Of a stretch of 64,000 nucleotides of DNA, positions 4,342 through 60,623 are shown one piece after another. This stretch comes from a virus. Lineage: Duplodnaviria; Caudoviricetes. Made by a program: the position numbers and the translations under genes. Within the stretch, counting starts at the first letter, position 1; every line of letters starts with the position of its first letter. The notes below the pieces were generated by a model. The model had not been told where the DNA came from, did no database searches, and worked only from the letters and a program-made list of their open reading frames with translations. The stretch spans positions 32,001 through 96,000 of the IMG/VR virus record IMGVR_UViG_3300028735_000004; one strand, 5' to 3'.

Positions 4342-4363
4342 CTATATTTATATCAAAATAATA

Positions 4364-5565: not shown

Positions 5566-5576
5566 ATGATCATTAA

Positions 5577-6035: not shown

Positions 6036-6061
6036 TTTTACCTCAAAGTATATATAACAAA

Positions 6062-9410: not shown

Positions 9411-11297
9411 TCAGGCTGCTGCTATTGTAGTTACAGTTCCACTTGTTCCTCTATATTTTAAAGCCCCGTCCTCAACATATAAAATTCCTCCGCCAACAGA
9501 ATTCGCAGATGGAACAGTAGTAGCATTAGCAATAAATATTACACCATCTCCAGTTGAAGATGGCATTTGTGTTGAAGTTAAGTTAGATAACAGGCATAAA
9601 GATAATACTCTTTGCCCAGAGACAACTTCCGTAGCTTCAACCATTGTTTCAGTAGTATTATGAAGTTGTATTCTAACACCACCTTTTAATCCAGTTCCAG
9701 TCTTGGCACCACCTCTTAACTGAAGAATTCCGCCGTTATTATTTGAGCCACCAGCAGATTGGGCTTGAACTGTTAAATTAGTTGTTGTTGATGAAGCATC
9801 ATTTTGTTTGATTGTTGGAGATGAAACTGAAGTATTAAACGAAACAGTCGAAACCCCAAAACCAATTTCATTATTAATAACATAAAATGCAGTTTGAGCA
9901 CCAGTTCCAATATAAACGGCACCAGTTGTTGCTCTACCATATAATCTAACATTACTTACTGCATTGCTATATGATGAGTCAGTTCCAATAAATAACTCAT
10001 CGCTCGTATTAGTTTCAAGTATTGGTAAGTCAGCAGAGTTGCTATTATTTCTAGCTCTAATAATTTTAGTATTGTTTGGGGTTCTTATATAACCATCTGT
10101 TGCTGAATTTGGAATAAATTCTAAAGGCGCGCCGAGGGTTGTTTTTCCGTTAGTTACCTTGATATTTTGAGTTGAATTATAAATTAAAGTAGTATCGCCG
10201 GAAACAACGCTGTGAGTAATGCCATAAGTAGAACTGCCTATATATAAAGTACCGGTTGTTGTTACTGTTCCGGATGTAACAAAGGATAATGTATTTGATG
10301 AGGCAGTAAATGTGGCTTTATCTGCACCACCGCCTGCCGCACGCCAATGTTGAACTGCACTGTCTAAATAGACGCCGGTATTATTATTTATGATAACCCA
10401 GGATGGATTTATGCTTAAAAATGAAGATGATGTTGAATAACTGCCGGAAGAAATTTGAACTTCTCCATCCGAACCTCCGCCTACCCCATCTCCAGATTCT
10501 AATACTAAATTACCACCATTAAATGTACTAGCGCCGTCTTGACCGTGTATCTTAAGTATATTTCCAGATCCAGTTAGATGTTGTGGTATATAAATCCAAG
10601 AATTAGATGAATTATTAGCAAATGCAAAATATTGATTAGATGGCTCGCTAAATATCCTTGCAAGTTCAACTGGAGCATCAGGATTTTTAGCAAATAAGAC
10701 ATAACCATCATTTCCGGACCCTGATTTTATTCCAGAAATTAATTTTACAGTACCACCATTAGTATTTCCTGACACTGCATTTGCGGATTCTAAACTGATG
10801 TGTTGACCACCGGCAAATAATGGATAATTAAGTATTCTTGCATCAGATCCTGTAAAAAATTGTGCCGCAGGGAGTCCCCAATACCAAGCACCTCCAGAAC
10901 TAATTCCTGCCCAATATACACCGCTAATACCATACATTATATTAGCACCAGAAGCCTTGGTGTATAAATTTGCAACTGTAGAATCGTCACCTATTGTTAA
11001 ATGATTAGATGTATCCCATTTAAGTAAGGCTGCATCAGAAGCATCTGTTCTTCTGGCCCCAATTAATGTAACATTGGCGCTCTCAAAATTTAATTTACCA
11101 TTAGAAGATGTTGTTCCAGAACCAAATTTTAAATAAGAAGAAGGTATACTGACAACTCCTGATAATCCAGTTAAATTACCAATTGTTGGAGCCGCCGCAG
11201 TAGTACCAGTACCATTAAGATCTCCAGCCAATCTAACTATACCATTAGATATTGTTGTTGCGTCTGCTACTGTTACTGGTGGTAATTTATAAGTCAT
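9411..11297 (-). CDS. Tail fibre protein
   Basis: DATTISNGIVRLAGDL fibre motif, Gly/Ser/Thr-rich, repeated GG-x-L-x-L-x-SG modules, C-terminal GGILYVEDGALKYRG. Confidence 0.8.
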   Translation of the reverse strand: MTYKLPPVTVADATTISNGIVRLAGDLNGTGTTAAAPTIGNLTGLSGVVSIPSSYLKFGSGTTSSNGKLNFESANVTLIGARRTDASDAALLKWDTSNHLTIGDDSTVANLYTKASGANIMYGISGVYWAGISSGGAWYWGLPAAQFFTGSDARILNYPLFAGGQHISLESANAVSGNTNGGTVKLISGIKSGSGNDGYVLFAKNPDAPVELARIFSEPSNQYFAFANNSSNSWIYIPQHLTGSGNILKIHGQDGASTFNGGNLVLESGDGVGGGSDGEVQISSGSYSTSSSFLSINPSWVIINNNTGVYLDSAVQHWRAAGGGADKATFTASSNTLSFVTSGTVTTTGTLYIGSSTYGITHSVVSGDTTLIYNSTQNIKVTNGKTTLGAPLEFIPNSATDGYIRTPNNTKIIRARNNSNSADLPILETNTSDELFIGTDSSYSNAVSNVRLYGRATTGAVYIGTGAQTAFYVINNEIGFGVSTVSFNTSVSSPTIKQNDASSTTTNLTVQAQSAGGSNNNGGILQLRGGAKTGTGLKGGVRIQLHNTTETMVEATEVVSGQRVLSLCLLSNLTSTQMPSSTGDGVIFIANATTVPSANSVGGGILYVEDGALKYRGTSGTVTTIAAA

Positions 11298-11319
11298 AAC
11301 CTATTATAATACCTTTTTA

Positions 11320-11691
11320 TTATCTAATATATCTATGTGTGATAATAATATTTGCTAAAGGTGAAACTCCACATTTTGTACCAGAATAATATAAGCCAGT
11401 TAAATCAGGAGATCCGCTAACTGTCCAAGTACGATAAGTTAATGAACTACAATCGACATCAGTTCCTCTCATAACATAATAAATAATTGGGCCAACATTA
11501 ATATTATCTAAAGGTGATTGAGAATAAGAGGAGTAAAGATCAAAAACAATTGGAGAATATATATCTTGTATTACACTAACTGCATTATCATAAGTTCCTC
11601 TAACAATAGTATAATAACCATCGTATCCTATTGCTGGAGAAACAAAATTAGAAACGCTTAAAAATTCAGATGTAGAACCAAGATCTACCAT
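11320..11691 (-). CDS. Small putative virion protein
   Basis: Within the fibre operon and carries a DGY motif. Confidence 0.55.
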   Translation of the reverse strand: MVDLGSTSEFLSVSNFVSPAIGYDGYYTIVRGTYDNAVSVIQDIYSPIVFDLYSSYSQSPLDNINVGPIIYYVMRGTDVDCSSLTYRTWTVSGSPDLTGLYYSGTKCGVSPLANIIITHRYIR

Positions 11692-11700
11692 TTATTACCT

Positions 11701-13086
11701 TTATGGAACTGGTACGGAAGATCCGTCCCAAGGAGATAACGCAACAGAAGCGGTATTTGCAGAAGTTATAGCAATAAATACAACACTTTGTTTGTTATCA
11801 AAAGTGTCTAATCTGTTGCCAGCGGGTAATATTAACAAATCTCTAATTCTTCCTTTAATAAAATAATCTGCGGCAACACGATAAGCCAAAATGCATTTTT
11901 CTGCAACATATGGTTTAATAGTTGCTGGATAATTAGATAATCTTAAAGGATTAGATAGACCTCCAAGAGAAATCGTAGGACTTCCAGAACTTCCTATACA
12001 ATACATAGTTAATGCAACCCCAGTATCATAAGAAGCTGTATAACCATCTCTGCTACGATTTCCGCACCAAATTAAGCTTGATGCCGAAGTTATATCCGCC
12101 CAAACCAGTGGCCCTGAACCAGAATTAGGATTTAAAGCCGTTATCGTTGATGTTGGGGTGTAATTTGCTTGAGTAACTGCCGGAGATGATAAAATCAATA
12201 TAGCATAAGGATCGACGTCACCCGGTTCAGTATCATCTAATCTAAAAAATCCAAAATTAATACTTTGACCATTTGTTAAAGTATGGGCAAACCACCAGGA
12301 ACCATTGGCCGATGTTCCGGCAGAAGGAACGGCATTGGCGGCACTAAATTGAGAGTTGGTGCCAGCAGGAAGATTGGTTATAAATGTTTGATGATTTACG
12401 CTTCCAGCTGCACCTCTGACAACCATTCCTTTTGATGGAAAACCGTTTCCTGTTCCACCTGCTCCCGGAGGCACCGTAGCTGTACATCCGGCCTGAGTTG
12501 CTAAATAAGAAAATAATTGGGTACTTTCGCCAGATGCATCGGCACATATATAATAAACGGTCCCGGTGGTACTATTCGCAGAATTTTTAGAAAACATAAA
12601 TTCTCGTTTAAATTCTTTATTTGAACTTACTGTAATTGTCGCTCCACTAATAGCACCGGTTAAAGTTCCAGTACCATTAAATGTACCCGTTCTTGGCATC
12701 ACAACTGCCCAACCTTGATTTATTTCAGAATTCCATACATATCCCAATAACTCTCCGGTTGCGCTTGTTCCGGTTTGAGTTACACCCTCTCCTCTTAACG
12801 GAGTTCCAGTTGGTGCTGCATTCATTACAAATTTAAATGTAGACGGGCCTTGCATAACAATCCAGGCGGCAGCGGAAGTAAGACCTGATGGATAAGTATC
12901 ATTTAATGGGTTAGCATTCGTTCCCCAGCTATCATTATTATTAGTTCCAGCAGAAGTTTTTGTTGTTCCGTCGCTATGAGCCACAGTATTCCAACCGGCA
13001 GCTTTCATAACTCTTGTCATCTTCCAAACCATATTGAAATAATTAGTTCCACCCCAATTATAATTTGCTGCTATTGCATTAGCCAT
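11701..13086 (-). CDS. Putative virion/tail structural protein
   Basis: Gly/Thr/Ala-rich 461 aa ORF in the fibre operon. Confidence 0.65.
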   Translation of the reverse strand: MANAIAANYNWGGTNYFNMVWKMTRVMKAAGWNTVAHSDGTTKTSAGTNNNDSWGTNANPLNDTYPSGLTSAAAWIVMQGPSTFKFVMNAAPTGTPLRGEGVTQTGTSATGELLGYVWNSEINQGWAVVMPRTGTFNGTGTLTGAISGATITVSSNKEFKREFMFSKNSANSTTGTVYYICADASGESTQLFSYLATQAGCTATVPPGAGGTGNGFPSKGMVVRGAAGSVNHQTFITNLPAGTNSQFSAANAVPSAGTSANGSWWFAHTLTNGQSINFGFFRLDDTEPGDVDPYAILILSSPAVTQANYTPTSTITALNPNSGSGPLVWADITSASSLIWCGNRSRDGYTASYDTGVALTMYCIGSSGSPTISLGGLSNPLRLSNYPATIKPYVAEKCILAYRVAADYFIKGRIRDLLILPAGNRLDTFDNKQSVVFIAITSANTASVALSPWDGSSVPVP

Positions 13087-13095
13087 TATTCACCT

Positions 13096-14298
13096 TTATA
13101 CAATCATCCATTTTGTTCCATTATATACTAAATTAACCGCAGAATAATTAGTTGAAATAGTATAAGTAGATATGGTATCAATTAACTTGCCATTACCATT
13201 TATGATAATATTATACGCACTTGCACTGCCGTTAGCATCTTTAATTATATAAGATTTGCCAGTGGCGGGAGATGCCGGTAATGTAATAGTAATGCTTGAT
13301 GCTAAAGTACCAACAGATATTATGTAATCTGTTGTAAGAGCGATATAATTCGATGTAACAACTGTGAAGTTCAAAAGATTAACTGGAGTAATAGTTGCAT
13401 CAGCTGCATAAACTTTAATTCTTGACATAGAGCATAATACGCCATCATTGGCGGCTGGAGATACATTCTGTATTCTTATCTGTGTTTCATATTTAGCATT
13501 ATACGCAGGTAAAGAAACTAATACGGTTTTATAATCAGAATATGAAGATGTTGTTGTTAAAGTAGATCCAGACACAACATAACCGTCTGTAATATTATAT
13601 AATCTAATCTCTGCTGTTTGACCAGCAGTTGCCTCAAAAATTACCTCAAATTTAAATGTAGTTCCTATTGGATAATCGGCCGCATTCACTACTACAGAGC
13701 CAATACGCATAAAAGTGTTGGAACCAGTACCGATATTAGAAAAAGTGCCAGAAGAAATATAAAGATACTGATAACCATCTCCTACTGAAAATTGGCTTGT
13801 AAAATCTGATGGCGTCCAGCTTGAACCATCATATTGCAAAAATTGATTTAATGTAGGTGGTGTAGATGATACTGGAGTATTTTGAATTCTAATGACTGTT
13901 TGAGAAGTTAATGTTCCCGATAAATCTCCAGAAAAACTTAGACTTGATGGAGCCCAATTAGTTCCATTATAACTTAATACTTGGCCTATAACTGGAGGTG
14001 TTGCTGAAATTGGATGATTTTGAATGCCAATTACTGTTTGAGAAAATCCACTACTATACAAATCTCCAGCAAAAATAACTCCAGTCGTTTGTAAATTATA
14101 TATTAATTTATCAATAAAATCTAATCTTTCTCTAACTGTACCGTATGTTCCACTTGGTTTAACACCCAATTCTGCTTCAACCGAAATTATGGCATCCCTT
14201 AATTGATTAATAACATCTGCTGTCAAAGAAGTGATATTATTAACAACTTTTGGTAAAGTGGCACTATTATCTATACCTAATGGATAAACGGTTGCCAT
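13096..14298 (-). CDS. Tail fibre protein (paralogue of 14298-16202)
   Basis: Likely start MATVYP at 14298 (TAATG overlap). F(A/S)GDL..QTVI..P..GQVL.YNG..W.P repeats and a C-terminal ITLPASPATGKSYIIKD domain. Confidence 0.8.
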   Translation of the reverse strand: MATVYPLGIDNSATLPKVVNNITSLTADVINQLRDAIISVEAELGVKPSGTYGTVRERLDFIDKLIYNLQTTGVIFAGDLYSSGFSQTVIGIQNHPISATPPVIGQVLSYNGTNWAPSSLSFSGDLSGTLTSQTVIRIQNTPVSSTPPTLNQFLQYDGSSWTPSDFTSQFSVGDGYQYLYISSGTFSNIGTGSNTFMRIGSVVVNAADYPIGTTFKFEVIFEATAGQTAEIRLYNITDGYVVSGSTLTTTSSYSDYKTVLVSLPAYNAKYETQIRIQNVSPAANDGVLCSMSRIKVYAADATITPVNLLNFTVVTSNYIALTTDYIISVGTLASSITITLPASPATGKSYIIKDANGSASAYNIIINGNGKLIDTISTYTISTNYSAVNLVYNGTKWMIV

Positions 14299-16202
14299 TA
14301 TACCACGCTCCATTGGCTTCCGGTATAAACTAATGATACAGAAGCATAATTAACATTTATTATGAAAGTGGCAGACCCATCTATATTTTTGCCGTTTCCA
14401 TCAACAGTAATATTATTTGTTTGAGATCCTCCGGCAGTATCTTTTACATAAATTACTCTTCCTGTTTGTGGTGATGATGGTAAATATATTGTTATAGGTG
14501 CGCCTAAAGTTCCAACTGAAATTAAGTATTCGGTATTTGAAATATTATAATTAGAAGTTGTTGAAACTATATTAACAACTCCGGTTAATGGAGACCAATA
14601 GCCATCTTGATAGATATATAATCCAGATGCAGCATAACCATCTTTTCTAAGATATATAGAACCTTGTTGTGGCGTACCAAAAGGAACTCCGGTACCACTG
14701 CTAATTGTAGGTTGAGGATTAGCAAGACCTCCAACACCAAAATATACAGCGTTTAAATAACCATCTTGTAATCTTGCGCCTTCGACAGATGCGTTAAATA
14801 AAGATACATATCCGTCAGCTCCAGAACCAGTTTTAGCTCCTGATTTTAGATTTAAAGAGCCGCCATTATTATTTGATCCACCTGCACTTTGGGCAAAAAT
14901 ACTAAAATTTGTACCAGATGATGATGAATGAACTTTTTGACCTATACTTGGAGTAGTAACAGCATCGTGAATTTCAATTTGCGGAGTAGAGCCACTTGTT
15001 AAAGGCCAAAACCTTAATACTTCTTGAGCAGACCAATTTAAAAAGTTTAAATAAGCAGAGGTATATATACTTGCACCCTGATATGAATTTAAAGATATAT
15101 TATATCCATCTACTTGAGTAGCCCAACCATAAGATGGGTTATAATCTCCAAATAAAAGAGATCTGGAAGATTGAGAGATAATATTTACTTCACTTGCTAA
15201 AGAAGCGGTAGAAAATCCTTTCCACAAACTTTTAGCAGATCCATAATATTTTGTTTTAATATATCCGTCAGTTGGATATGAAGAAGGATTTCCGTTAAAA
15301 TCTAATAGAATTGCTTTATACGCACCAATGTATTGATTAGTGTTATCAATCTTTAATGTTTTAAGAGAATTATTTGTATCAGCAAAATTTACTGTCCTGG
15401 TTTGAATATATCCGTCATTGGGTGCGGATAAAAATACCTCATACCCAATTATACATGTAGCCCATCCGGTAGATAAATTATCATCACCTATATATAATCC
15501 ACCAACATCATCTTGAGAAATAATATTTGCATTTCCAAAAGCATTAACTCCTCCCCACATAACTTGACGAGAAAAGATATTATCATTTCTCGGGCTTTGA
15601 ATGGCCGGAGTTGTGCCGTCATAGACAACGGTATCACCAGGCAATTGTAATGGATATATTGAAGCCGTTGTTGCCGGAGCCCACTGATAACCATCATATT
15701 TTAAAATTTGATTTAATGTGGGGGACGTTGATGATACGGCAACTCCTTGAAGTTTAACTACGCTTGGATTGGGGTAAGTGCCACCAAGATCTCCACCTGC
15801 AGAGCCTGATGGAGTTGTAGATAAAGTAGTAGGAACCCACTGAGATCCATTATATTGTAAAACCTGACCGTTTGTAGGAGTGGTGGGTGATATTAATTTT
15901 CCCCTCAATCCTATAACAGATTGGAAAGTATCTATGCCAGTTAAATCTCCAGCAAAAGTAATATTAGAGCCGCCGCCGCCTCCACCACCACCTGAAATTG
16001 ATGCTATTAATAATTCCATAGCATCTAATCTATGTCTTACGGTGGTATAAAGACCGGAGGGTTTAACTCCTAATTCACCTTCAATTGCAACAATAGCATC
16101 TCTTAATCTATTAATAATCTCTGCATTAATATTTGTGATACTATCGAATACTATTGGTAATGTAATAGTATCATCTATACTTTGAGGATATACGGTTGCC
16201 AT
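14298..16202 (-). CDS. Tail fibre protein
   Basis: Same N- and C-terminal domains as 13096-14298, AGGDLGGTYPNPSV motif, eight DGY motifs. Confidence 0.82.
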   Translation of the reverse strand: MATVYPQSIDDTITLPIVFDSITNINAEIINRLRDAIVAIEGELGVKPSGLYTTVRHRLDAMELLIASISGGGGGGGGSNITFAGDLTGIDTFQSVIGLRGKLISPTTPTNGQVLQYNGSQWVPTTLSTTPSGSAGGDLGGTYPNPSVVKLQGVAVSSTSPTLNQILKYDGYQWAPATTASIYPLQLPGDTVVYDGTTPAIQSPRNDNIFSRQVMWGGVNAFGNANIISQDDVGGLYIGDDNLSTGWATCIIGYEVFLSAPNDGYIQTRTVNFADTNNSLKTLKIDNTNQYIGAYKAILLDFNGNPSSYPTDGYIKTKYYGSAKSLWKGFSTASLASEVNIISQSSRSLLFGDYNPSYGWATQVDGYNISLNSYQGASIYTSAYLNFLNWSAQEVLRFWPLTSGSTPQIEIHDAVTTPSIGQKVHSSSSGTNFSIFAQSAGGSNNNGGSLNLKSGAKTGSGADGYVSLFNASVEGARLQDGYLNAVYFGVGGLANPQPTISSGTGVPFGTPQQGSIYLRKDGYAASGLYIYQDGYWSPLTGVVNIVSTTSNYNISNTEYLISVGTLGAPITIYLPSSPQTGRVIYVKDTAGGSQTNNITVDGNGKNIDGSATFIINVNYASVSLVYTGSQWSVV

Positions 16203-24721: not shown

Positions 24722-24791
24722 TTTTTCTCCGTTTAGATACAAAAATCCCTACTTCATAAAATATATTTATAATATTATTATGAAAATATTT

Positions 24792-36708: not shown

Positions 36709-37674
36709 TTATTTTCTAAACCACCACTGATTATTCATATACCACTCGCAAACTCCACCTATAGCTTCTTTAAACTTAAATTCTGGCTTCCATCCAAGTG
36801 CTCTTAACTTAGATGCATCAACAGAATATCTAAAATCGTGTCCTGGTCTTGGATCTTTAATATGAGTAATTAAAGAATGCCCATCACCGACAGCATTACA
36901 TACCATTTGAACAACTTCAATATTTCTATATTCTTGATTTGCGGAAATATTATATGTTTCATTAATTACATCTGAATTTAATATTTTTAATAAACCGGCG
37001 CAATTATCAAAAACATGTGTCCAATCTCTTATTTGTAAGCCTTGACCATAAATTGGTATAGGTTCTTTATTAATAATACTTTTAATTATTCTTGGTATTA
37101 ATTTATTTGATGTTTGTCTTGGACCATAGTTATTTGAAGATCTTGTTATCAAATATTGCAAGCCAAATGTGTTATGTGCCGCTTTAACAAGCAATTCGCC
37201 AGCCGCTTTTGATGCGCTGTATGGATTTTGAGGATCAATTGGATTATTTTCGGTCCAAGAAGCATCGTGTTCTGATTTTAACATACCGTATATTTCATCC
37301 GTAGATACATAAACAAATTTTTCTATTTTATGCTTTAATGAAGCCTCAATTATTACTTGAGTGCCAACTACATTATGCTCTACGAAAATACCAGGATCTT
37401 TTATAGAAGCATCTACCGAGCTTTCTGCAGCACCGTGAATAACAATATCTGGTTTTTCAAATTCAAAAATATTATTAATAATATGTCTGTCTCTAATATC
37501 AGCCAAATAAAAAGTATGATTTTTATTTGAATATATATTATTTAAGTCAGCAGGATTATTTACTCTATCAATGCTAATAAACTCATAGGGATATTTTTCA
37601 TATATTGCCTTACGAATAAAATTACTATAAATAAATCCACAACTTCCGGTAATTAAAATTTTTTTCTTACTCAT
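36709..37674 (-). CDS. rmlB: dTDP-glucose 4,6-dehydratase-like NDP-sugar dehydratase
   Basis: ITGSCGFI, HGAAESSVD, STDEIYG, YSASKA, SNNYGPRQ and RPGHDFRY. Confidence 0.9.
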   Translation of the reverse strand: MSKKKILITGSCGFIYSNFIRKAIYEKYPYEFISIDRVNNPADLNNIYSNKNHTFYLADIRDRHIINNIFEFEKPDIVIHGAAESSVDASIKDPGIFVEHNVVGTQVIIEASLKHKIEKFVYVSTDEIYGMLKSEHDASWTENNPIDPQNPYSASKAAGELLVKAAHNTFGLQYLITRSSNNYGPRQTSNKLIPRIIKSIINKEPIPIYGQGLQIRDWTHVFDNCAGLLKILNSDVINETYNISANQEYRNIEVVQMVCNAVGDGHSLITHIKDPRPGHDFRYSVDASKLRALGWKPEFKFKEAIGGVCEWYMNNQWWFRK

Positions 37675-37688
37675 TATTCCTCATATCT

Positions 37689-37697
37689 ATTATATCA
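37689..37697 (-). promoter_or_regulatory. Extended -10 element TGATATAAT upstream of the rmlB-like gene
   Basis: Exact TGnTATAAT followed by a GAGG RBS. Confidence 0.45.
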
Positions 37698-38525
37698 TCA
37701 TTTATATAAATTATATTTTGGATCTTGATATTTTTCAGCTTCTTTAACATCAATGTGTTTGTGCCAATGTGTTATAAATGTTTTAATATTGTGGTTCATA
37801 AATAATTTATTAACTGGATTAACTTTTAAACTTCCACTTTCTTCGTGATAGATATTAGTTTGACCACAATTAACTATTTTTTTACCAAGAAGATATTTAA
37901 TTCTGAAGCTCATATCTATATCTTCAAAGGCCCAAATATAATCTTCACAAAAGCCTTTATTACCAGATTTATTAGTAAAACAATTTTCAAATACATCTGA
38001 CTTCATTAAAGCGACAGCACCAGTTACGGCCGGAAAAATTCTATTCTGCCTGTCCCTATCTTCTTCTTTTTGATTTAATCTGAAATGATATGGTAATCCT
38101 CTGGAAGACATTGAGCATAATACTCCGGCGTGTTGAATTTTATCCGTATCAAAATAATTTAATTTAGCTCCAACTTGACCAACCGAGGGATCCTTTTCAA
38201 TAATATTAATCATATTTTTTAAAGAAGTTCGATCGTTAAATTGAATATCATTATTTAATGTTAAAATTAAATCATTTGACTTGGATGCTGCTTCTTTAAA
38301 TAAGAAATTCATACCTTGTGCATAACTATCTCTATTATGAGGATATGAAATTGGTATAATGTTTTGATTATTCCAAGATTTTATTTCTTCTATAGATCCG
38401 TCTGTAGAAGCATTATCTTTGATTAACCATTTAAAATCAACATTTTCTAACGCTGGTAATAAAGAGTTTTTCAATCTAATTAATTTATTTTTACCCTGCC
38501 AATTTAATGTAAGTAAGTATAACAT
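37698..38525 (-). CDS. Glycosyltransferase family 2
   Basis: LTLNWQG, KDNASTDGS, LNND, AVTGAVAL, FEDIDMS and YHEES. Likely start at 38525. Confidence 0.9.
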   Translation of the reverse strand: MLYLLTLNWQGKNKLIRLKNSLLPALENVDFKWLIKDNASTDGSIEEIKSWNNQNIIPISYPHNRDSYAQGMNFLFKEAASKSNDLILTLNNDIQFNDRTSLKNMINIIEKDPSVGQVGAKLNYFDTDKIQHAGVLCSMSSRGLPYHFRLNQKEEDRDRQNRIFPAVTGAVALMKSDVFENCFTNKSGNKGFCEDYIWAFEDIDMSFRIKYLLGKKIVNCGQTNIYHEESGSLKVNPVNKLFMNHNIKTFITHWHKHIDVKEAEKYQDPKYNLYK

Positions 38526-38526
38526 T

Positions 38527-39525
38527 TTATAACCCCACTTGAATGCCAGCGCCAACTGATACTGCGCCATCAAAACCAACTTGAACTTGAGGGGCAACAT
38601 ATGTATTACGAATAACTTTTGGTATATGTTGTCCAACATTGTACGCAGCCGGAACAATTACGACTTGTGGTTGTTTTGATACTATATCATAACCCATACC
38701 TAATTGTAAAAATGACCAATCAGGACTATCGTTATATTTACCGTAAGTCATAAAACCAAATGTTGCATTGGGTGTAAATTCACCATTAACTCCTGGTTTA
38801 GCGGTTTGTATATTAATACCACCGCCTGCACCGATATAAAGTCTTGGATTCCAGAATTTAAATTTTGCTCCAGGATATTCTTGAATTAATTTCGCATTAT
38901 TAATATTTACTGGATATTCTTTACCGTCTACACTAACTGAAAATTTATTATAAATATACTGCTTGCCTTCTTCATCTTTGCCTATAACATTAACCATATT
39001 ATAAGATCTTTGTTTTACGCTAACATCCCAAGGTTTTTCTTTCCAGGCGCTAAAACTAACTGATCCGATAGGTACTGATGTTTCATTAAATTTCTCAGAT
39101 AATTCTAAATTTTGTTTGTTTTTCAAATAACCATATAGATCTACTGAGCAAGATGTAGGTTCAACCGGATCTGGTCGAGGATCTGTGCTTGTAGAAGGTA
39201 TATTTGTTCCAGATTGAGCTCTACTATATACAATTGTTTTATTTACTGCAACAACTGAAGCGTTCAATTTGCCTAAATCTTGCCTTATCACATTAAGATT
39301 TACATTATTTTCTTTAATAAATTCATCCATATCCTTTTTAGTAGCGTATTGGGACATAGATCTAACTATGTGATCGTTTAATTGTTTTTGTTCTACGATG
39401 CTTTCATTTATTGCTGCTTGTCGTGAAATAATTTGTTGTTGGAAATAAATTATAAAACCTAATCCACATAAAATTAAAACAAACGACAATACTACAATTA
39501 TTATATGTTTTAAAGATATTGTCAT
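38527..39525 (-). CDS. Membrane-anchored protein: N-terminal TM, coiled coil, C-terminal amphipathic beta strands
   Basis: IIIVVLSFVLILCGLGFIIYF TM segment. C-terminus LYIGAGGG..LQLGMGYD..VSVGAGIQVGL. AAGGAG Shine-Dalgarno. Confidence 0.75.
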   Translation of the reverse strand: MTISLKHIIIVVLSFVLILCGLGFIIYFQQQIISRQAAINESIVEQKQLNDHIVRSMSQYATKKDMDEFIKENNVNLNVIRQDLGKLNASVVAVNKTIVYSRAQSGTNIPSTSTDPRPDPVEPTSCSVDLYGYLKNKQNLELSEKFNETSVPIGSVSFSAWKEKPWDVSVKQRSYNMVNVIGKDEEGKQYIYNKFSVSVDGKEYPVNINNAKLIQEYPGAKFKFWNPRLYIGAGGGINIQTAKPGVNGEFTPNATFGFMTYGKYNDSPDWSFLQLGMGYDIVSKQPQVVIVPAAYNVGQHIPKVIRNTYVAPQVQVGFDGAVSVGAGIQVGL

Positions 39526-39547
39526 TTTAGTACTCCTTTAGCCCCAT

Positions 39548-39575
39548 ACTATAACTCTGGTACCAAAGATGTCAA
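39548..39575 (-). promoter_or_regulatory. Sigma-70-type promoter TTGACA-16 nt-TATAGT
   Basis: Minus strand reads ttgaca tctttggtaccagagt tatagt, directly upstream of the AAGGAG RBS of 38527-39525. Confidence 0.75.
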
Positions 39576-39580
39576 TACTT

Positions 39581-40722
39581 TTATTTTTTCCATACATTAT
39601 AATAAATTTCTTTAATATCAATATTATTTAAATTTAATTGTAAATTAAATACTTTAGATTGATTCTCAATAAGGCTACATAAATCTTCCAATTTTGTTCT
39701 ATAAAATAATGATGGTATAATGAATAATTTTATATTATATTTTTTGCATAATTTTATTTTTAACCTGTCTCTTTTTTTTAAATCCTCAAATTCTTTATTT
39801 GTTTTAAAAAATTTTCCTATCATCTCATAGTGTTGCTCACCTTGATGCTCAAAAGCAATTTTTAATTTTTCACAAAATCCATCTAACTGTAGTAAATAAC
39901 CAGTATTATGATTTTTTAACCATACCGGAAAACATTTTGGAAATTTTTCATCAAAAATTTTTTCAAATAGCAATCTGCATATTTCTTCTGATAAAAATTT
40001 ATTAGAACATTCTGGACACCACATATTTTTACTAACAATATTATTAGGCTTAATTTAAATTTATGATTATTTTTACATTCCCATTCAATTTTCTGGCCGG
40101 AGTTATAATATATATTAGAAATTAATTTACCTCCAAAATTAAATGCTATTTGTTGCAAATCATTAATTGATAATTTTGCATTACCAGCACATTTGGGGCA
40201 CCATTTGTTTTTTTTGATATTATTAGGAGTAGCTGACCAAATATGATTTTCAGAACATTTCCATAACAATTTATTATTCACCCCATTATAAATATCAGAT
40301 AAACAATCACCGTTTTTATTTTTCGCAAGTACCTTCATATCATCAATTGATAACTTTGCATTACCTGCGCATTTTGGACACCATATATTTCTATATATAA
40401 TCGAATCATATATAGCATACCATTTATGACCAAATTTACATTCCCATAATATTTTATCTTTACAATTTTTAACTGTATTGGATAAACATTTTCATTCTTT
40501 TAGTGAAGCAAAATATCTCAATTCGTCAATATTGATTTTGCCTTTTTTATTACAACTGGGGCACCATTCTCCGTTTTTTAATTTATAATAATTTTTACTA
40601 AAAGTATGATTAAATTTACATTTTATTAAAACTTTTTCATTATATTTAATATTATCTTTTATATCTGATAATAACTCTCCACCGTTATTAGATATAATTT
40701 CTATTATTTTGAAACTTTCCAT
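39581..40722 (-). pseudogene. Degenerate homing endonuclease (repeated zinc-ribbon modules plus PD-(D/E)xK nuclease)
   Basis: Three track ORFs join through an in-frame TGA at 40492-40494 and a one-base frameshift near 40045. Repeats G.CLS...WEC..H.W...WCPKC and nuclease LQLDGFCEKLKIAFEHQGEQH. Confidence 0.82.
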
Positions 40723-41405
40723 TTGTTTATAAAAATCTTTCTCGCTTCTGTATATAATTTATTAGTGTTCAATTGAGAACTTGATATTTTTCCAAAATGT
40801 ATAACTGGAATTTGTACTAATTTAAATTTAAATTTTAATTTTTTGCTCCTAAAACCCATATCCGTATCTTCAAAATAAGCAATACCAAACTCTTCAGAAA
40901 ATGGTCCAATATAATTATTTATTATTAATTTATTAAATGTTCTTTTATTTCCAGCCAAGCACCAACCGCTCATATAATTAATATCTTTTTTAGAATCATT
41001 GGTTTCATATAAAAATTGAAAAGTTTTAGGATCTACCTTTCCACCAGTAGGACCAACGAGCGTATCTTCTTCTAATTCATTAATTAATAAATCTGTCCAA
41101 TTATTATGATTACATTTGACTCTAATATCATTATTTAAAAACAATACATTAGCATAGTGAGAAGCATTATAACCTCTATTACAGGCTTGTGCAAACCCAT
41201 AATTTTTATCATTTCTAATATAAATAATATTATAATGATCTTTCATAAAACTTCTAACAACTTCTTCTGTATTATCTTTGCTATCATTATCTATAATGAT
41301 TATTTCATTCTTATCTTTATCTAATTGACATAAATCTTGAAGACAACTTTTAGTAAAATTAGATTTATTAAATACTGGAATACAAATGCTTAACCGATCG
41401 GTCAT
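40704..41405 (-). CDS. Glycosyltransferase family 2
   Basis: SICIPVFN, IIDNDSKD, GFAQACN, FLNND, GWCL and YFEDTDMG. Confidence 0.92.
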   Translation of the reverse strand: MTDRLSICIPVFNKSNFTKSCLQDLCQLDKDKNEIIIIDNDSKDNTEEVVRSFMKDHYNIIYIRNDKNYGFAQACNRGYNASHYANVLFLNNDIRVKCNHNNWTDLLINELEEDTLVGPTGGKVDPKTFQFLYETNDSKKDINYMSGWCLAGNKRTFNKLIINNYIGPFSEEFGIAYFEDTDMGFRSKKLKFKFKLVQIPVIHFGKISSSQLNTNKLYTEARKIFINKWKVSK

Positions 41406-42073
41406 TTTATTAATTCCCAAATAAATTGATAAACATTACCATAAGGTTTTTTCTTTAAAAAATCAACAACTTCAGCTGGCAAATTATCATATGAATTATT
41501 AAACTCAGTATGTTCTGGCTCAACTCTTGTATCTTGCATTTCTTTTATTTTAAAACCACATCTTTTAATCATACTTTTTAAAGTTTTATATGTAAAAAAT
41601 CTAATGTGAGTATTATCACATAAGCCCAAATTACGATATTCAAAATTATTATTCAATAAGTCTATTATAACCGCGTTGTGAGCTATATTCGGTATAGATA
41701 TTAAAACAGAACCTTTATCTTTAATAAATTCTTTTGCTTCCATTAACACCTTTTCAGGATCATATAAATGTTCTAAAACATCTGCAAAAATAATATAATC
41801 AAAATCTTTAGGTAAAGTTTTCCAACTAAAATCTTCAATATCAGATCCTACAAAATTATAATTAGCATCAGCAAACTGTAATGCTTCAGACCCAGCATCT
41901 ATATCTTGCTCTACTATTACAACATTACAATTTAACTGCTCTTTCATATATTTTGTCATTCGACCGTGAGCGGAACCAAATTCCAAAACTTTAGAGTTAG
42001 GTTTTATCTTTTGTAATATCAAAGATGCAGAACTACCATCATTAATATCTAATGTAAAATTATATTTACTCAT
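41402..42073 (-). CDS. Class I SAM-dependent methyltransferase of the type found in glycan clusters
   Basis: VLEFGSAHG, FDYIIFADVLEHL, LISIPN and HIRFFT. Confidence 0.88.
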   Translation of the reverse strand: MSKYNFTLDINDGSSASLILQKIKPNSKVLEFGSAHGRMTKYMKEQLNCNVVIVEQDIDAGSEALQFADANYNFVGSDIEDFSWKTLPKDFDYIIFADVLEHLYDPEKVLMEAKEFIKDKGSVLISIPNIAHNAVIIDLLNNNFEYRNLGLCDNTHIRFFTYKTLKSMIKRCGFKIKEMQDTRVEPEHTEFNNSYDNLPAEVVDFLKKKPYGNVYQFIWELIK

Positions 42074-43191
42074 ACTTCTTTAGATAATTGTAAAATTTGT
42101 TGAGTGATATTATTCCAATTATATTTTTGAATAACATCTTGCTGTTGTAATTTGACTTTTTGTTTTAAATCATTTAGGTTATTTACAGCATATTGTAATT
42201 TATTAGCGGCATCGTTAATATCTGGAACAAACCATAAGGAAGGTTTGCTTTGCCAATACATCGATTTTGGATTTGCTTTCTCAATAGATCCATCAACTAA
42301 CAATGAATTAGTGTTGTTTAAAAAATCCAATTGACCCCCATAATTAGAGCAAACATTAACTAAACCAAATGCTAATGCCTCTAAACCCGGCATATAAAAA
42401 CCTTCACAATGATTTAAGCTAAACAAAATATCACAAGATTTATACAAACCTTCTATATCTGGAATAAATTCTTTTATCACTTTAATCTCTGCGTGATTTT
42501 TATATTTTTGTTGAAATGTTTTAAATATAGAGTTAAATGATACATCAAATGGTAATTTAGGCTCTTTATCAACAACTTTTAATATTAAACAAACATCATC
42601 TTTATTTGTAAAAGCCTTGCCGAATGCTTCTAAAGCCCCTGGAAGATTTTTTCGTAAATGTGGCTGAGCAATATTTAATAATATTTTCGTTTGTTTATTT
42701 GTTTTTATTTGAAGTGGTTGGGTTGTCTCAAATTTATCGACATTAACACCGTGAGGTATAACTATAATTTTTTCTTCAGGTACACCACTATCTATAAATG
42801 TTTGTTTAACGAAATTAGATGGTGCTAAAATTCTATGACAATATTTATAATTTTTTGCAAAACCATCTGGAAGGGAATTTTTCCCAGCCCACTCCCAAGC
42901 CCAAATACCAAATTTTTTAGACTTTTGGCTATGATTTAAATATACTGGAAAATTTTTCATAGCCGTATAACTTAACTCTAAATCATAATCATTGTCAAAA
43001 TTCTCAACTAAATATGGTTTTAAATCATCTGGAAAATGAAGCAAGCCATTGGTGGATTGCAAATGCACAGTGTGATTTTGATGTATTAAGCTACGAGCAA
43101 TATTTTGCCCAATAATACTCCAAGAATGCAATTCGCCTAAAAATTGTTGAATAGATATTTTCACACAAAGATTTATATCCTTGTATAACAA
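42070..43191 (-). CDS. Glycosyltransferase family 4 (GT-B)
   Basis: WAWE, LAPSNF, IPHGV and EGFYMPGLEALAFG..SNYGGQLDF. Confidence 0.92.
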   Translation of the reverse strand: MLYKDINLCVKISIQQFLGELHSWSIIGQNIARSLIHQNHTVHLQSTNGLLHFPDDLKPYLVENFDNDYDLELSYTAMKNFPVYLNHSQKSKKFGIWAWEWAGKNSLPDGFAKNYKYCHRILAPSNFVKQTFIDSGVPEEKIIVIPHGVNVDKFETTQPLQIKTNKQTKILLNIAQPHLRKNLPGALEAFGKAFTNKDDVCLILKVVDKEPKLPFDVSFNSIFKTFQQKYKNHAEIKVIKEFIPDIEGLYKSCDILFSLNHCEGFYMPGLEALAFGLVNVCSNYGGQLDFLNNTNSLLVDGSIEKANPKSMYWQSKPSLWFVPDINDAANKLQYAVNNLNDLKQKVKLQQQDVIQKYNWNNITQQILQLSKEV

Positions 43192-43205: not shown

Positions 43206-45851
43206 TTATGATACAGTTAATGTATTGGTGCCTTGAGAGGACGAATAACAATTGGTTGGATTATATACCGCTCTAATAGTAAATATTCCAACATCATAGT
43301 CCCAAGGCGAAACGGTAATTGAGGCATAACTTGCAACTAATGTAGCTGAACTAATAAATACTTCTGGACCCGCCGGGTCTCCACCTATTGTTAATTGTTG
43401 ATAATAAAAATCAACAGTTCCATCAGGAGATCCTCCAGAAACATAGGCAGTAAATGTTGTTGTTCCGTGAATTGATATAAACATAGGATCAATTGTTAAA
43501 GTCGTTGTAGTTGAAGTTGGTGAATTAACCTGATATTCAGTAATAGTATCATTGCTGGTATTATAATTACTATCTCCTTGATAATAAGCCTTAATGCGCC
43601 AAGTTCCTGCCGGCACTATACTGTTGCTAATATTGCAGGTCGCCCCTCCAACCGACGGAACAAGTGTAGCTGAACCAATCGTAATTTCAGGAGTGCCCAC
43701 ACGAGGTGCGTATTTAAATATAACCGTTCCGGATGGAGTTCCTGAGCCTGGAAAATTTACAGATACATCAGCGGTGTATGTTGTATTAGAGCCAGCACAT
43801 CCGACACCAGGAGATGCAGATAAAGACACAGAAGTGTTTGCTTTATTCACAGTTTGTACAATAGGATCTGATGTTTTTGGACCAAATATACCGTCTCCAA
43901 GGTATGAAGCAGTTATATTAAATGTTCCGGCGCCAAAAAAAGTAATAGATCCATTACCAATACCCGCTAATAAAGAAGAGGTGGCGACCACAGTTCCATT
44001 TTTTTTAAATTGAACATTTCCGGTAGGAGTTCCATAAATACTTGAGACAGTTGCAATATAATTAATAGTTTCTCCAACTACAGATGGATTTGGATCCGCT
44101 ATCGCTTTTTCAATTGTTATAGATGTTCCATATCCAATTACTTGATGAACTAATGTAGAAGAATATGCCGGCAAATAATTATTATCACCGTAATAAATTG
44201 CTGACAAATAATATGTTCCAGCTGATAAAAATACAGGATTATAATTTAATTGACCTGAAGATAAAGTGCCAGAATACAATGCATCATATCCATCTTTAAA
44301 GAAAATCACATCACCTGTCGGGGTAGCAACAGAGCCGACCACATAAGCACTAAATGTTAAAGTATCGCCTAATTCAGATGGATTAGTGCCTAATGTTTGA
44401 TATAATAAAATAGTTGAAACTGATTTATAAATATCGTGATATAATTCTTGAGATAATCCATTATGATTGCTATCTCCAGAATAAATCGCTGTAAATAAAT
44501 GCGTTCCAGCATTAAAATCATAACCAGAAATAGATGCAGTAGCAACTCCATCGATATTGGACAGAATTGCAGAACCAATTAAATAATATCCGTCATAAAA
44601 ATTAATGCTACCAGAAGGAACGCTACCATAATCACCAGAAACTTTACATAATAAATATATATTAGAGCCATAACCAGATGGATTTGATCCAGGAATGCTA
44701 AAATCTAAATATACTCCGGCTTTACTAACCGTGTAATTTAATGTGGCTGTTTTTGTTTCAAAAACCTCAGTGCCTCTATATATCGCTCTTAAATAATGAG
44801 ATCCTGTAGATAATGAAGAAATTGATAATTCAGTATATCCATCAGATAAATATCCACTACCAAGAAAAGTATAATACCCATCATAAAAATCAACAATTCC
44901 ATCAGGAACCGATGTTGATGTTAATGTTGCATTTAATGTTATAAGTTGATTATAATAAGAAGAAGTTGGAGATGCGGTTAATGTCATACTTACTGGAGTA
45001 TAAACCGGATCTGTAATAACTTGACTTAAAATATTAGAAGTATTAGTTAAATGATTTCTGCTGCCTAAATAAACTGCTGTAATATAATGAGTACCTATAT
45101 CAGCAATTTTAGTAGTGAATACAACTGTACCAGAACCGTCTAATGTTCCAGTTGCTAATAATGTAGTATAGCCATCATAAAAACTTACTCTTCCTTGTGG
45201 TATTCCATAAGAAGAAGATACTTGTGCTGAAAAATTAACTAATTGATTATTGCCGGCCGGATTTAGATTGGATGTTAAATTTACTGTTGTTGAGATTGGT
45301 GAAATTAATTGAGATATTGGTAAAGTAATACTTGGACCATAAAAATCATTACCTACATAATACGCTTTAACTTCATATAATCCGCCTTCAAGGAAAACAT
45401 CTCCGGAATTAGCTACACCTAAATTATTTAACTCTACTTCCTTAATTTCTAAATTATTTGAATAAAATTTTACACGACCTTGAGGAATAGATCCGTCTGC
45501 AGATAATACAGTTGCAGTAAAATTAACAAACTCTCCATAATTAATTGAAAAGTTAGAGCTAATTAATGAAATTGAGGTAGAAATTGGAGTTCTACTAACC
45601 ACATTTTCTATAACAATTGAAGATACGCTTGTGTTGAAGCGGCCCTGACCATCATATTCGGCGATAATATTATTATTTCCTGGATTTAAATCAGATACTT
45701 CTAATTCTGCTTCTCCCCTGGAATTTAATTTTACCCTACCTATTTCTACATTACCATTTTTAAAAACAACAAATCCTTTGGGAATAACAGGAGTATCCAA
45801 AGATATTACTTTGGCTTTTACTTTTACCTTATCTCCTTGTTTAATAACCAT
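43206..45851 (-). CDS. Virion protein of tandem bacterial Ig-like (group 3) repeats
   Basis: About nine roughly 95 aa repeats of T..TL.S..NP...G..V.F.A.V....P.G.V.F.DG....G...L....H...A.Y.G. Confidence 0.88.
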   Translation of the reverse strand: MVIKQGDKVKVKAKVISLDTPVIPKGFVVFKNGNVEIGRVKLNSRGEAELEVSDLNPGNNNIIAEYDGQGRFNTSVSSIVIENVVSRTPISTSISLISSNFSINYGEFVNFTATVLSADGSIPQGRVKFYSNNLEIKEVELNNLGVANSGDVFLEGGLYEVKAYYVGNDFYGPSITLPISQLISPISTTVNLTSNLNPAGNNQLVNFSAQVSSSYGIPQGRVSFYDGYTTLLATGTLDGSGTVVFTTKIADIGTHYITAVYLGSRNHLTNTSNILSQVITDPVYTPVSMTLTASPTSSYYNQLITLNATLTSTSVPDGIVDFYDGYYTFLGSGYLSDGYTELSISSLSTGSHYLRAIYRGTEVFETKTATLNYTVSKAGVYLDFSIPGSNPSGYGSNIYLLCKVSGDYGSVPSGSINFYDGYYLIGSAILSNIDGVATASISGYDFNAGTHLFTAIYSGDSNHNGLSQELYHDIYKSVSTILLYQTLGTNPSELGDTLTFSAYVVGSVATPTGDVIFFKDGYDALYSGTLSSGQLNYNPVFLSAGTYYLSAIYYGDNNYLPAYSSTLVHQVIGYGTSITIEKAIADPNPSVVGETINYIATVSSIYGTPTGNVQFKKNGTVVATSSLLAGIGNGSITFFGAGTFNITASYLGDGIFGPKTSDPIVQTVNKANTSVSLSASPGVGCAGSNTTYTADVSVNFPGSGTPSGTVIFKYAPRVGTPEITIGSATLVPSVGGATCNISNSIVPAGTWRIKAYYQGDSNYNTSNDTITEYQVNSPTSTTTTLTIDPMFISIHGTTTFTAYVSGGSPDGTVDFYYQQLTIGGDPAGPEVFISSATLVASYASITVSPWDYDVGIFTIRAVYNPTNCYSSSQGTNTLTVS

Positions 45852-48800: not shown

Positions 48801-49075
48801 CCAGATAATTCAACTTCTAATTGAGATCCTTGATTTTGATCTCTGGGCTGATTTTGAAAATCTATACCCTTGCCATCTAATACGCCAGAAACCAATAAAG
48901 AATCAAATAATTGTTTTTGAGATAATACATCTGGAACTACACCGGATCCAAAATGATTATTAATAATTCCAGTTTGAATTTGATTGTTATAACTTTGTTC
49001 AGTTAATAAATCAGCATCATCAATATTTTGACCATTAAACCATTTATTTTGTGGAGCTGATACCGGTATTCTCAT
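45851..49075 (-). CDS. Large putative baseplate/tail structural protein with dockerin-like Ca-binding motifs
   Basis: In the baseplate operon. GDLNDDGVVDENDL and ADINGDMIVSSVDT motifs. Confidence 0.7.
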   Translation of the reverse strand: MRIPVSAPQNKWFNGQNIDDADLLTEQSYNNQIQTGIINNHFGSGVVPDVLSQKQLFDSLLVSGVLDGKGIDFQNQPRDQNQGSQLEVELSGSLATGKRTVKVLIIGLNFENTLQYDRFVFHTNEKQFSKNHYVRVLKVFFNDFIGDANLSFNLGGRIVIKETNPLTISRDSLMLAQDVEPNLFFRDFFVSGGGSLSSMLQQALPSYNLDTLNIKTGYRQLRELAENDVVSQIGQKFLASNSNIQKITLLMSVDNSSNPADLVWNGDLIVSLYPLQSVLDCPVEISPTLAIDFPPSNIPLAQLSFNYNSLADRGVVLDTVPQPVDFIFSNTAVGAGTAISADKYYVITVKRAGSANKCSIKFAVGENIFSESRLTLFDGNDWVDVSEESLWFQVWSDAVKISDGQAYDAGVGVSVPKVKLDNNTGVNIDYCLDNVSFVRNDVYYAHLSAVENTSVPVQDARTGNTIDSIKQYEPSLSLIKDSELLKLTQTSDPLILGTVSDKNVKSYNALSAAISAYLREYCIVKNELLIKIIDDPTDPRYDLDVLNLVTEFLNGNLNNAKFIPNISNPTNFYRICRSELISLTYGDLNDDGVVDENDLAIAQNLLGVNLTSVPTQQDYISLTNYFVDDGPLTFQVLDGVNVVASGTDGILTVNVLDGTLANFASASTNFSALSNLSTLKVHIPTAINPKNIGSFSITALLDPNNITIKKLYYSPEVILQAYKADINGDMIVSSVDTSLLTDYIYKNPPFPATSSPANKIGTKFNVLKLTLEQFTDRDDDYSSSINNRSSLIHIVPDILADGYNLGFSLYGQDLLTSPVAFNIVKQLSWNDYYITTSPNVRMVPVAFTYQSGHNINTCNVSGKSSDIYPFIEAFDPGKNDFFIPNNLVMNLGGEILRSDGYFYKVDFEVGQITLELPASAIVEEKYINLFADFICNQDGNGKTRLGYNSMKFADCSVVESDALLKDQVRISVSLQSNSPLLDGYYCDNMSGPIVDGRMGIYLDHQTGLLYLNFANLFDDFTLQTLSTKLNITVYLKKAGWNNKPLFVSASKTQNILELTPETFNCGNDTLIILT

Positions 49076-60571: not shown

Positions 60572-60584
60572 AATTAACCTTAAC

Positions 60585-60593
60585 ATTATACCA
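60585..60593 (-). promoter_or_regulatory. Extended -10 element TGGTATAAT upstream of the gp25-like gene
   Basis: Exact TGnTATAAT in a short intergenic gap. Confidence 0.45.
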
Positions 60594-60623
60594 AATTATT
60601 AGAAAAATTTAAAATAAATATAA

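Follow-up and report, generated by a model that had tools for sequence, protein, structure and literature searches.

The stretch of DNA considered here covers positions 32,001 to 96,000 of the IMG/VR virus record IMGVR_UViG_3300028735_000004 (Duplodnaviria; Caudoviricetes) and is referred to, at its full length of 64,000 nucleotides, as the window. Its GC content is 29%, its parent contig has a recorded length of 243,941 bp, and nearly all of its genes lie on the minus strand. Two blocks of structural genes are present: a fibre cluster (9411-16202) and a baseplate block (43206-64000), the latter holding a gp25-like protein, a Baseplate_J wedge protein, a protein with a LamG-like domain (P2318), a further large protein (P1074) and a protein built of Big_3_5 repeats. 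The subject of this work is the tripeptide Asp-Gly-Tyr (DGY), which occurs in the tail proteins of both blocks at about 16 times the frequency expected by chance, and which a preliminary description of the fibre cluster had proposed as a sequon for modification or docking. Elsewhere the window encodes a TubZ-like tubulin, an intein-bearing ribonucleotide reductase, DnaB-like and UvsW-like helicases, thymidylate synthase, and a PIN/PhoH protein and an IMPDH that are both split by LAGLIDADG sequences; the tubulin, reductase, helicases, thymidylate synthase and the like are marks of a huge phage.

The open reading frames (ORFs) of the two structural blocks are as follows:

9411..11297, minus strand: 628-residue fibre protein; two DGY (nucleotides 10701-10709 and 10089-10097).
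11320..11691, minus strand: 123-residue fibre-cluster protein; one DGY (nucleotides 11614-11622).
11701..13086, minus strand: 461-residue fibre-cluster protein; one DGY (nucleotides 12040-12048).
13096..14313, minus strand: 405-residue fibre protein, matching phrog_972 (E 7.6e-10); two DGY (nucleotides 13771-13779 and 13579-13587).
14298..16202, minus strand: 634-residue fibre protein; eight DGY among eleven DG, at residues 170, 263, 312, 365, 463, 480, 521 and 533.
43206..45851, minus strand: 881-residue protein with nine Big_3_5 Ig-like repeats (Pfam Big_3_5, E 5e-108); five DGY.
45851..49075, minus strand: P1074, a 1074-residue baseplate-module protein; three DGY.
49107..56063, minus strand: P2318, a 2318-residue baseplate or fibre-anchor protein with a Laminin_G_3 domain; eight DGY.
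56050..60129, minus strand: 1359-residue baseplate J-like wedge protein (Pfam Baseplate_J, phrog_6); one DGY, at residue 888.
60137..62213, minus strand: gp25-like baseplate protein (149 residues) and a 529-residue protein (phrog_2669, phrog_120); no DGY (0 and 1 DG).
62213..64000, minus strand: baseplate-module protein, open at the window edge; two DGY.

The C-terminal 90 residues of the 634-residue fibre also match phrog_972 ('tail fiber protein proximal subunit'), the 628-residue fibre gives a weak match to the DUF5907 repeat, and no family match was found for the 461-residue protein in Pfam or PHROGs. The Big_3_5 match scores 354 bits against a gathering cut-off of 35.5. Two local resemblances connect some of the sites: the motif 'SG.K.GSG.DGYV', with one DGY, is common to the 628- and 634-residue fibres, and four of the five DGY in the 881-residue protein share a single turn, 'F[YK]DGY', in repeats 3-6. 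P1074 also carries a dockerin type I-like calcium-binding segment at residues 585-614 (Pfam 28 bits, cut-off 22.9).

Recounting reproduced the preliminary tally: 14 DGY in the five fibre ORFs (split 2, 1, 1, 2 and 8), four of them close together (nucleotides 14598-14606, 14634-14642, 14757-14765 and 14808-14816), Tyr after 8 of the 11 DG in 14298-16202, and 19 further DGY in 43206-64000 (5+3+8+1+2), giving a total of 33. One span needed correction: the ORF given as 13096-14298 does contain two DGY, but its ATG is actually at 14313. For statistical purposes the 12 tail ORFs (9,156 residues) were compared with the remaining 43 ORFs of the window (11,569 residues); the head genes, and those for capsid and tube, fall outside the window. 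On the composition of each protein, 2.0 DGY are expected in the structural set, in agreement with the earlier estimate of about 2, as against the 33 seen (Poisson p 1.6e-28); the five fibre ORFs by themselves have 14 against 0.54 (p 1.4e-15). Across 1500 shuffles of residues within proteins the count averaged 2.05 and never exceeded 7, and a first-order Markov model, which expects 6.9, leaves p at 7e-13. When all tripeptides were tested DGY was by far the top, the next being the overlapping YDG, with p about 1e-5. Outside the structural set none of 49 DG is followed by Tyr (Fisher p 3e-8). This zero, set against 1.7 expected, is no significant depletion by itself; it bears out the earlier statement that DGY in the window is limited to tail, baseplate and fibre proteins.

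An excess of this kind could be spurious, the product of composition, of codon bias or of homologous modules that recur. Some sites are indeed homologous copies (the four in Big_3_5 repeats and the two in 'GSGxDGYV'), and in some related phages DGY lies within tandem fibre repeats. Repeat homology nevertheless accounts for at most four sites in the window (three of the four 'F[YK]DGY' and one of the two 'GSGxDGYV'), and once homology among the Ig repeats is removed at least 29 independent sites stand against the 2 expected; the Markov model does not absorb them, their flanks are unrelated, and vertically inherited orthologues gain sites independently. Nor is a motif at the level of DNA responsible, since the pattern GAYGGNTAY occurs within structural genes 33 times in frame and never out of frame (there is one match on the plus strand of the window). 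The codons vary, with GAT or GAC for Asp and GGT, GGA, GGC or GGG for Gly, Tyr being invariably TAT; together with the in-frame matches this upholds the preliminary claim of selection on the protein rather than a repeat in the DNA. A DGY-specific Asp codon signal was considered and rejected: GAC is over-represented at the Asp of DGY relative to other Asp (p 0.003), and to an equal degree in other DG contexts. Over all structural genes Asp before Gly uses GAC at 23-27%, whatever residue follows, versus 9% for other Asp, so the enrichment is a context effect of Asp before Gly. The preliminary description had allowed that the excess might vanish under a composition-aware test of all tripeptides; it survives correction for composition and for repeat homology alike. 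The excess is real, acts at the level of protein, and goes beyond composition, DNA repeat or hidden paralogy; an artefact is scarcely credible.

The motif is also strict. In the structural ORFs Tyr follows 33 of 85 DG, and Phe and Trp follow none; of 50 residues preceding Gly-Tyr, 33 are Asp and none is Asn or Glu. The probability of Tyr after DG is 0.39, compared with 0.03 after any other Gly. The other permutations of D, G and Y occur 2-11 times each, versus 33 for DGY; the mild enrichment of YDG (11 against 2.0 expected) resides mostly within YDGY. This exclusion of Phe, Trp, Asn and Glu suggests that the Tyr hydroxyl and the Asp carboxylate matter, rather than a generic aromatic after a turn. 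A literature search on the DGY motif and phage found no description of it, in line with the earlier assertion that no phage DGY sequon has been described.

Relatives were found through proteins. Megablast of the window against a phage collection gave no match, and no cultured member of the clade was found; among cultured phages the J protein comes closest to that of Bacillus phage G, with 29% identity confined to the N-terminal domain. Thirteen clade loci were examined via the J protein and 44 via an alignment of a glycosyltransferase (GT) of family GT4 encoded beside the baseplate genes (a single-protein GT4 query gave no loci, the alignment query 45). The contigs L001, L003, L093 and L097 share orthologues and synteny with the window, placing them in the same phage clade. 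The same DGY pattern runs throughout the 13 J-protein loci and the 44 GT4-alignment loci. In pooled, de-duplicated orthologues there are 211 DGY among 582 DG in P1074 (42 orthologues), 240 among 586 in P2318 (43 orthologues) and 21 among 72 in the J protein, so that Tyr follows DG with a probability of 0.29-0.41; in TubZ (0/37), the UvsW helicase (1/105) and the GT4 enzyme (0/35) the range is 0-0.03, and U332, a protein described below, has 0/66. In G5, a complete relative of 480 kb, the structural blocks contain 64 DGY where 5.4 are expected; elsewhere in the genome there are 18 against 15.7. The trait is extreme in certain proteins of L001, in which nearly every DG is followed by Tyr (13/14, 14/20, 19/21), and of L093 (12/15 and 11/13). 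The tail module of phage G has 2 DGY among 40 DG.

Homologues of the 634-residue fibre, fibre-like proteins of mosaic make-up, come from phages and from Bacteroidota, Chlorobi and Bdellovibrio; jointly they hold 87 DGY against 14.8 expected, the excess being concentrated in a few of them, which are encoded on the clade contigs L001, L003, L093 and L097. The closest cellular homologue of the N-terminal fibre repeats, a protein of 1043 residues (L096, in the region 10001-15300), has 1 DGY among 12 DG. On the sequences compared, DGY enrichment is a trait of a clade of uncultured huge phages, not of a fold. Two observations concern the movement of fibres. The 1043-residue protein adjoins PorP_SprF, Peptidase_S74 and CHU_C genes, a context of type IX secretion system kind on a Bacteroidota-like contig, a hint that the host belongs to the Bacteroidota and that fibre modules are exchanged with its surface proteins. 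Separately, the 41-kb contig L002 encodes (4060-7023) a 987-residue fibre with 12 DGY among 14 DG amid genes that mostly lack clade homologues; it may mean that a DGY-rich fibre was acquired horizontally, or that the trait exists in a second lineage. An aquatic lineage of jumbo phages, which has Bacteroidota as hosts and four GT orthogroups in its core, has recently been described (PMC12619734), and may or may not overlap the clade considered here.

Within the clade, individual sites come and go. The 31 distinct DGY columns of P1074 include 4 that are widely conserved and 12 that are singletons (40 aligned sequences, the window copy included; mean identity 52%), and 25 of the 46 columns of P2318 are singletons (20 aligned sequences, again including the window copy). 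The number of DGY per protein ranges from 0 to 13 in P1074, from 2 to 16 in P2318 and from 0 to 3 in orthologues (about 700-730 residues) of the protein at 62213..64000; the DGY at residue 888 of the J protein is kept in 8 of 8 aligned orthologues. Between the window and G1, a relative at 58-63% identity, only three of the eight P2318 sites are shared. Whole-triplet swaps are common between orthologues: DSL to DGY, NNA to DGY, IIS to DGY. Flanking positions carry at most 0.14 bit each over 301 non-redundant sites, beta-branched and aromatic residues being only mildly preferred. An excess so large, maintained while its positions change quickly, means that selection now acts on the tripeptide itself and not on a set of ancestral positions.

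The placement of sites was examined in an AlphaFold2 model of Big_3_5 repeat 4, built from an alignment of 18 repeats taken from the window protein and from its orthologue in G1, with secondary structure assigned by DSSP. The predicted structure is all-beta (predicted local distance difference test, pLDDT, 95.3). At the first site the strand 37-42 ends at D42 and the loop consists of G43, Y44 and Y45; at the second, D55-G56 close the loop 53-56 and the strand 57-62 starts at Y57. Both DGY of the repeat, which are 2 of the 33 sites in the window, are thus modelled at beta-hairpin turns; mapping onto predicted structure, as the preliminary description had proposed, supports a turn location to this extent. 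In the second strand Y57 alternates with E59 and S61, L60 and I62 facing the other side, which suggests that the Tyr faces outward.

The turn itself is not particular to the clade. The DG of DGY sits at the conserved turn of each fold ('F.DG...LG' in Big_3_5, 'FVDG' in the LamG-like domain, 'VL.W..DG.W' in fibre repeats). Among the Big_3_5 repeats, however, only four of nine (repeats 3-6) have DGY at the 'F[YK]DGY' turn, the others having NGN, SNN or KNG, and the fold therefore does not need the Tyr. At fibre site 170 homologues from outside the clade mostly have NGT, NGS, DGT or DGS, which makes the turn older than the Tyr. In the other homologues examined of the Big_3_5, LamG and fibre-repeat turns the residue that follows varies and is small or polar in most cases; what distinguishes the clade from those fold families is a shift to Tyr after DG, in many folds simultaneously. 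A signature gained separately by many unrelated folds, and confined to the outer tail of a single clade, implies a trans-acting reader or a shared surface function.

A candidate reader is encoded directly downstream of the baseplate genes, where a group of genes for glycan synthesis and transfer is found:

36709..43191, minus strand: glycan module as a whole; no DGY.
42070-43191, minus strand: GT4/GT-B glycosyltransferase (Pfam/NCBIfam).
41402-42073, minus strand: methyltransferase of Methyltransf_23/UbiG type.
40704-41420, minus strand: GT2 glycosyltransferase (Pfam/NCBIfam).
39581-40338, minus strand: repeat-protein gene, frameshifted.
38527-39525, minus strand: U332, 332 residues, helix plus beta-barrel; no Pfam family.
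37698-38657, minus strand: second GT2 glycosyltransferase (Pfam/NCBIfam).
36709-37674, minus strand: dTDP-glucose 4,6-dehydratase, RmlB (Pfam/NCBIfam).
34413-35774, minus strand: TubZ/PhuZ-like tubulin, directly after the module; orthologues in the relatives G1, G5 and G002 are 60-63% identical.

In the window, G1, G5, G002 and 44 further clade loci, the gene next downstream of P1074 or the Big_3_5 protein is GT4, and the usual order after it is GT2, U332, GT2, RmlB, TubZ. In 44 of 44 clade loci GT4, GT2 and RmlB adjoin the baseplate genes; a second locus in G002 has an RmlB paralogue and a large GT-containing ORF beside small fibre-like genes. Around the J gene of Bacillus phage G, the single outgroup, no GT is annotated over a distance of 20 kb.

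The methyltransferase figured in one of the roles suggested earlier, namely that DGY marks isoaspartate sites serviced by this enzyme. Asp-Gly is the sequence most prone to isomerisation, and the gene stands in the adjacent cluster. The enzyme, however, is not of the PCMT family, and searches for missing families, made in three near-complete relatives, found no PCMT gene in any of them. The methyltransferase has no orthologue in G1, G5 or G002 and is present in 4 of 45 GT4 loci, while DGY occurs throughout; the requirement for Tyr would also go unexplained. As the methyltransferase is not conserved in the clade and PCMT is missing, the idea is disfavoured: the phyletic pattern of these sequences appears largely to refute it, and we consider it very improbable. 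Of the genes whose co-occurrence with DGY the preliminary description proposed to check, GT4, GT2 and RmlB are present in all 44 loci and the methyltransferase in few; no sampled member lacks either DGY or the GT module, so that the comparison has no discriminating power.

Considered together, the observations are best fitted by DGY as a surface tag that is read in trans, which we hold to be somewhat probable. DGY would then be a short tag for recognition, which continuing selection maintains at exposed hairpin turns of the outward-facing tail, baseplate and fibre proteins of the clade; Asp-Gly would supply the ordinary tight turn of many beta-sandwich and fibre folds, and the Tyr after it would be the clade-specific part. 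The likeliest reader would be the phage's own soluble GT4, two GT2 enzymes and dTDP-glucose 4,6-dehydratase, encoded beside the baseplate genes. This module may join a glycan that contains deoxyhexose to the hydroxyl of Tyr; the reaction would take place in the cytoplasm, prior to or in the course of tail assembly, and the Tyr-linked glycan would coat the distal tail. A Wzy_C oligosaccharyltransferase was matched in control genomes and not in the three relatives, so direct cytoplasmic transfer fits better than transfer en bloc. As an explanation of the whole, a DGY recognition tag with the GT module as its likeliest reader is the best we have and comes close to being probable without reaching it; Tyr O-glycosylation by the adjacent module, the leading specific mechanism, is plausible rather than probable; and it is tentatively that we propose DGY as the acceptor sequon of a cytoplasmic, phage-encoded Tyr O-glycosylation that coats the distal tail of huge phages probably infecting Bacteroidota. 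The reader of the motif, Tyr as its acceptor and the action of the adjacent GTs on proteins are all three what we infer.

The sequon or docking reading first put forward for these sites gains from the strict motif, the turnover, the uninformative flanks, the beta-turns and the adjoining GT module; both the modification and its reader are putative. Several points weigh against the proposal. Every sampled member of the clade has both DGY and the GT module, leaving no contrast, and the association amounts to one phylogenetic event. Within the clade there is no usable correlation between DGY density and GT content; L049 and L051 have full GT sets, yet Tyr follows only 21-23% of their DG. Matches of the GTs in the PDB are generic (GlgA, chondroitin synthase; weakly GalT1 and GmaR), no specific similarity of the window GTs to known protein glycosyltransferases was found, and neither GT8 (PF01501) nor GT41 (PF13844) was matched in the three relatives. 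Other known roles of phage GTs are the modification of DNA and of glycans on the host surface, as in serotype conversion (PMC12619734).

The conserved U332 adds to these points. Its model (AlphaFold2, pLDDT 90) has a long N-terminal helix followed by a beta-barrel that resembles outer-membrane beta-barrel proteins (AFDB E 1e-11, low TM-score), and its homologues are nearly all viral. A novel GT, for which it had been considered, is ruled out by the helix and the outer-membrane-like barrel, with no GT fold. The presence in the module of what would be a membrane-anchored, barrel-like protein seems to fit a role in the cell envelope or in polysaccharide better than protein glycosylation in the cytoplasm. 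Lastly, some virion ORFs have no DGY. Two large ORFs upstream of the gp25-like gene (~900-1700 and ~700 residues) have none among ~99 DG over 13 loci; in G5 they come after the tape-measure gene, whose product has no DG, and a 1755-residue ORF (0 DGY among 18 DG) and a 1242-residue protease-related ORF (0 among 13) of that genome also lack it. Neither Pfam nor PHROGs matched the ORFs presumed to encode hub and spike, or those of the G5 head region, and no family or fold match backs the placing of the DGY-free ORFs; gene order, its sole basis, suggests that they are inner tail or head-internal components.

The missing correlation with GT content fits an explanation that needs no reader enzyme: that DGY is an unmodified functional turn, whose Asp and Tyr make lectin-like or antibody-like contacts for weak multivalent adhesion to host polysaccharide, or whose Asp-Tyr hydrogen bond rigidifies the turn. 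The Ig-like, LamG-like and fibre-repeat domains that hold the sites are typical glycan-binding scaffolds, DGY is restricted to distal tail proteins, and the YDG excess, lying mostly in YDGY, would agree with a pairing of aromatic residues across the turn. If the turn were merely sticky or stabilising in a generic way, however, DGF, DGW, NGY or permuted forms should be accepted, and these number 0 to 5 against 33 DGY; homologous domains outside the clade manage without the Tyr, and its gain by one clade alone, in many unrelated folds, would be left unexplained. We regard an unmodified turn, the main rival, as possible but rather unlikely.

Strict triplet, turnover and uninformative flanks are hallmarks of short motifs in general, and would serve equally well if DGY were read by something other than a GT: as the place where a decoration, chaperone or assembly protein docks, or as a site of phosphorylation, nucleotidylation, sulfation or oxidative Tyr cross-linking. 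Tyr cross-linking and binding by a decoration protein are two of the roles suggested earlier, and the results speak neither for nor against them. One gene beside the fibre cluster deserves mention here, being conserved next to it in the window, G5, L003 and L097:

7059-8267, minus strand: FAD-dependent oxidoreductase, 402 residues, Pyr_redox_2/HI0933-like, below family cut-offs.

Its matches are to generic flavoprotein families only, no candidate reader was identified, and no Sulfotransfer_3 gene was found in the three near-complete relatives. A reader of this second kind seems to us decidedly unlikely.

Glycosylation through a trans-acting reader, the mechanism that we favour, can be compared with known systems. 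Established sequons include the D-[ST]-[AILVMT] of Bacteroidota O-glycosylation, the D/E-X-N-X-S/T of PglB and the N-X-S/T of HMW1C/NGT. DGY is like these in being a short motif (theirs have 3-5 residues, often with Asp first) scattered over many unrelated surface proteins; it differs in its putative Tyr acceptor, those of the bacterial sequons being Ser, Thr or Asn. The Bacteroidota and PglB systems, moreover, act outside the cytoplasm via lipid-linked glycans; neither Wzy_C nor GT41 was found in the three near-complete relatives. We know of no Tyr-linked glycosylation sequon in any virus, nor of a strict consensus for Tyr glycosylation; if DGY is a glycosylation sequon it would, as far as we know, be the first on both counts.

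Two further systems provide partial precedents. In mycobacteriophage virions, glycans made by phage GTs have been shown experimentally on the C-terminal parts of capsid and tail-tube subunits, according to the account of Freeman 2023 given in PMC12619734. The clade resembles these phages in encoding its own GTs, with the virion exterior as the proposed target, and its GT genes adjoin virion structural genes; unlike the mycobacteriophage sites, those of DGY are internal, follow a strict tripeptide over baseplate and fibre proteins, have Tyr as the putative acceptor and are known from sequence alone. Tyr O-glycosylation is established in the S-layers of Paenibacillus alvei and Thermoanaerobacter, where beta-Glc or beta-Gal is joined to Tyr of a repetitive surface protein and the glycans often include rhamnose from the Rml pathway (PMC2943079). 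These S-layer proteins have only two to four Tyr sites each, and the review gives no consensus for them; transfer, believed to accompany secretion, is ascribed to a membrane O-oligosaccharyltransferase (PMC2943079). The present system differs in belonging to a phage and in that the Wzy_C transferase was not found in the three near-complete relatives.

Should DGY prove to be a glycosylation sequon, the glycan shields of virions could be predicted from sequence in uncultured huge phages, a rare consensus for Tyr O-glycosylation would be at hand, and glyco-engineering might gain a small, portable tag. Should it prove to be an unmodified adhesive turn, phage tails would have a new minimal motif for binding.

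Two minor features of the window remain to be described. The overlapping ORFs 39916-40338 and 39581-40024 of the glycan module, in different frames, together match a single repeat-protein gene of about 385-410 residues. That gene directly follows GT4 in the relatives L057, L082, L086 and L091, and its apparent frameshift near 40000 in the window could reflect a pseudogene, an assembly error or recoding. Selfish elements are abundant in the window (21278-24742, 18376-20898, 3-1583 and 33221-34120). An HNH domain lies within the intein of the ribonucleotide reductase large subunit, a free-standing GIY-YIG endonuclease is present, and the PIN/PhoH and IMPDH orthologues in G5 and L097 are much shorter than the LAGLIDADG-bearing copies of the window.

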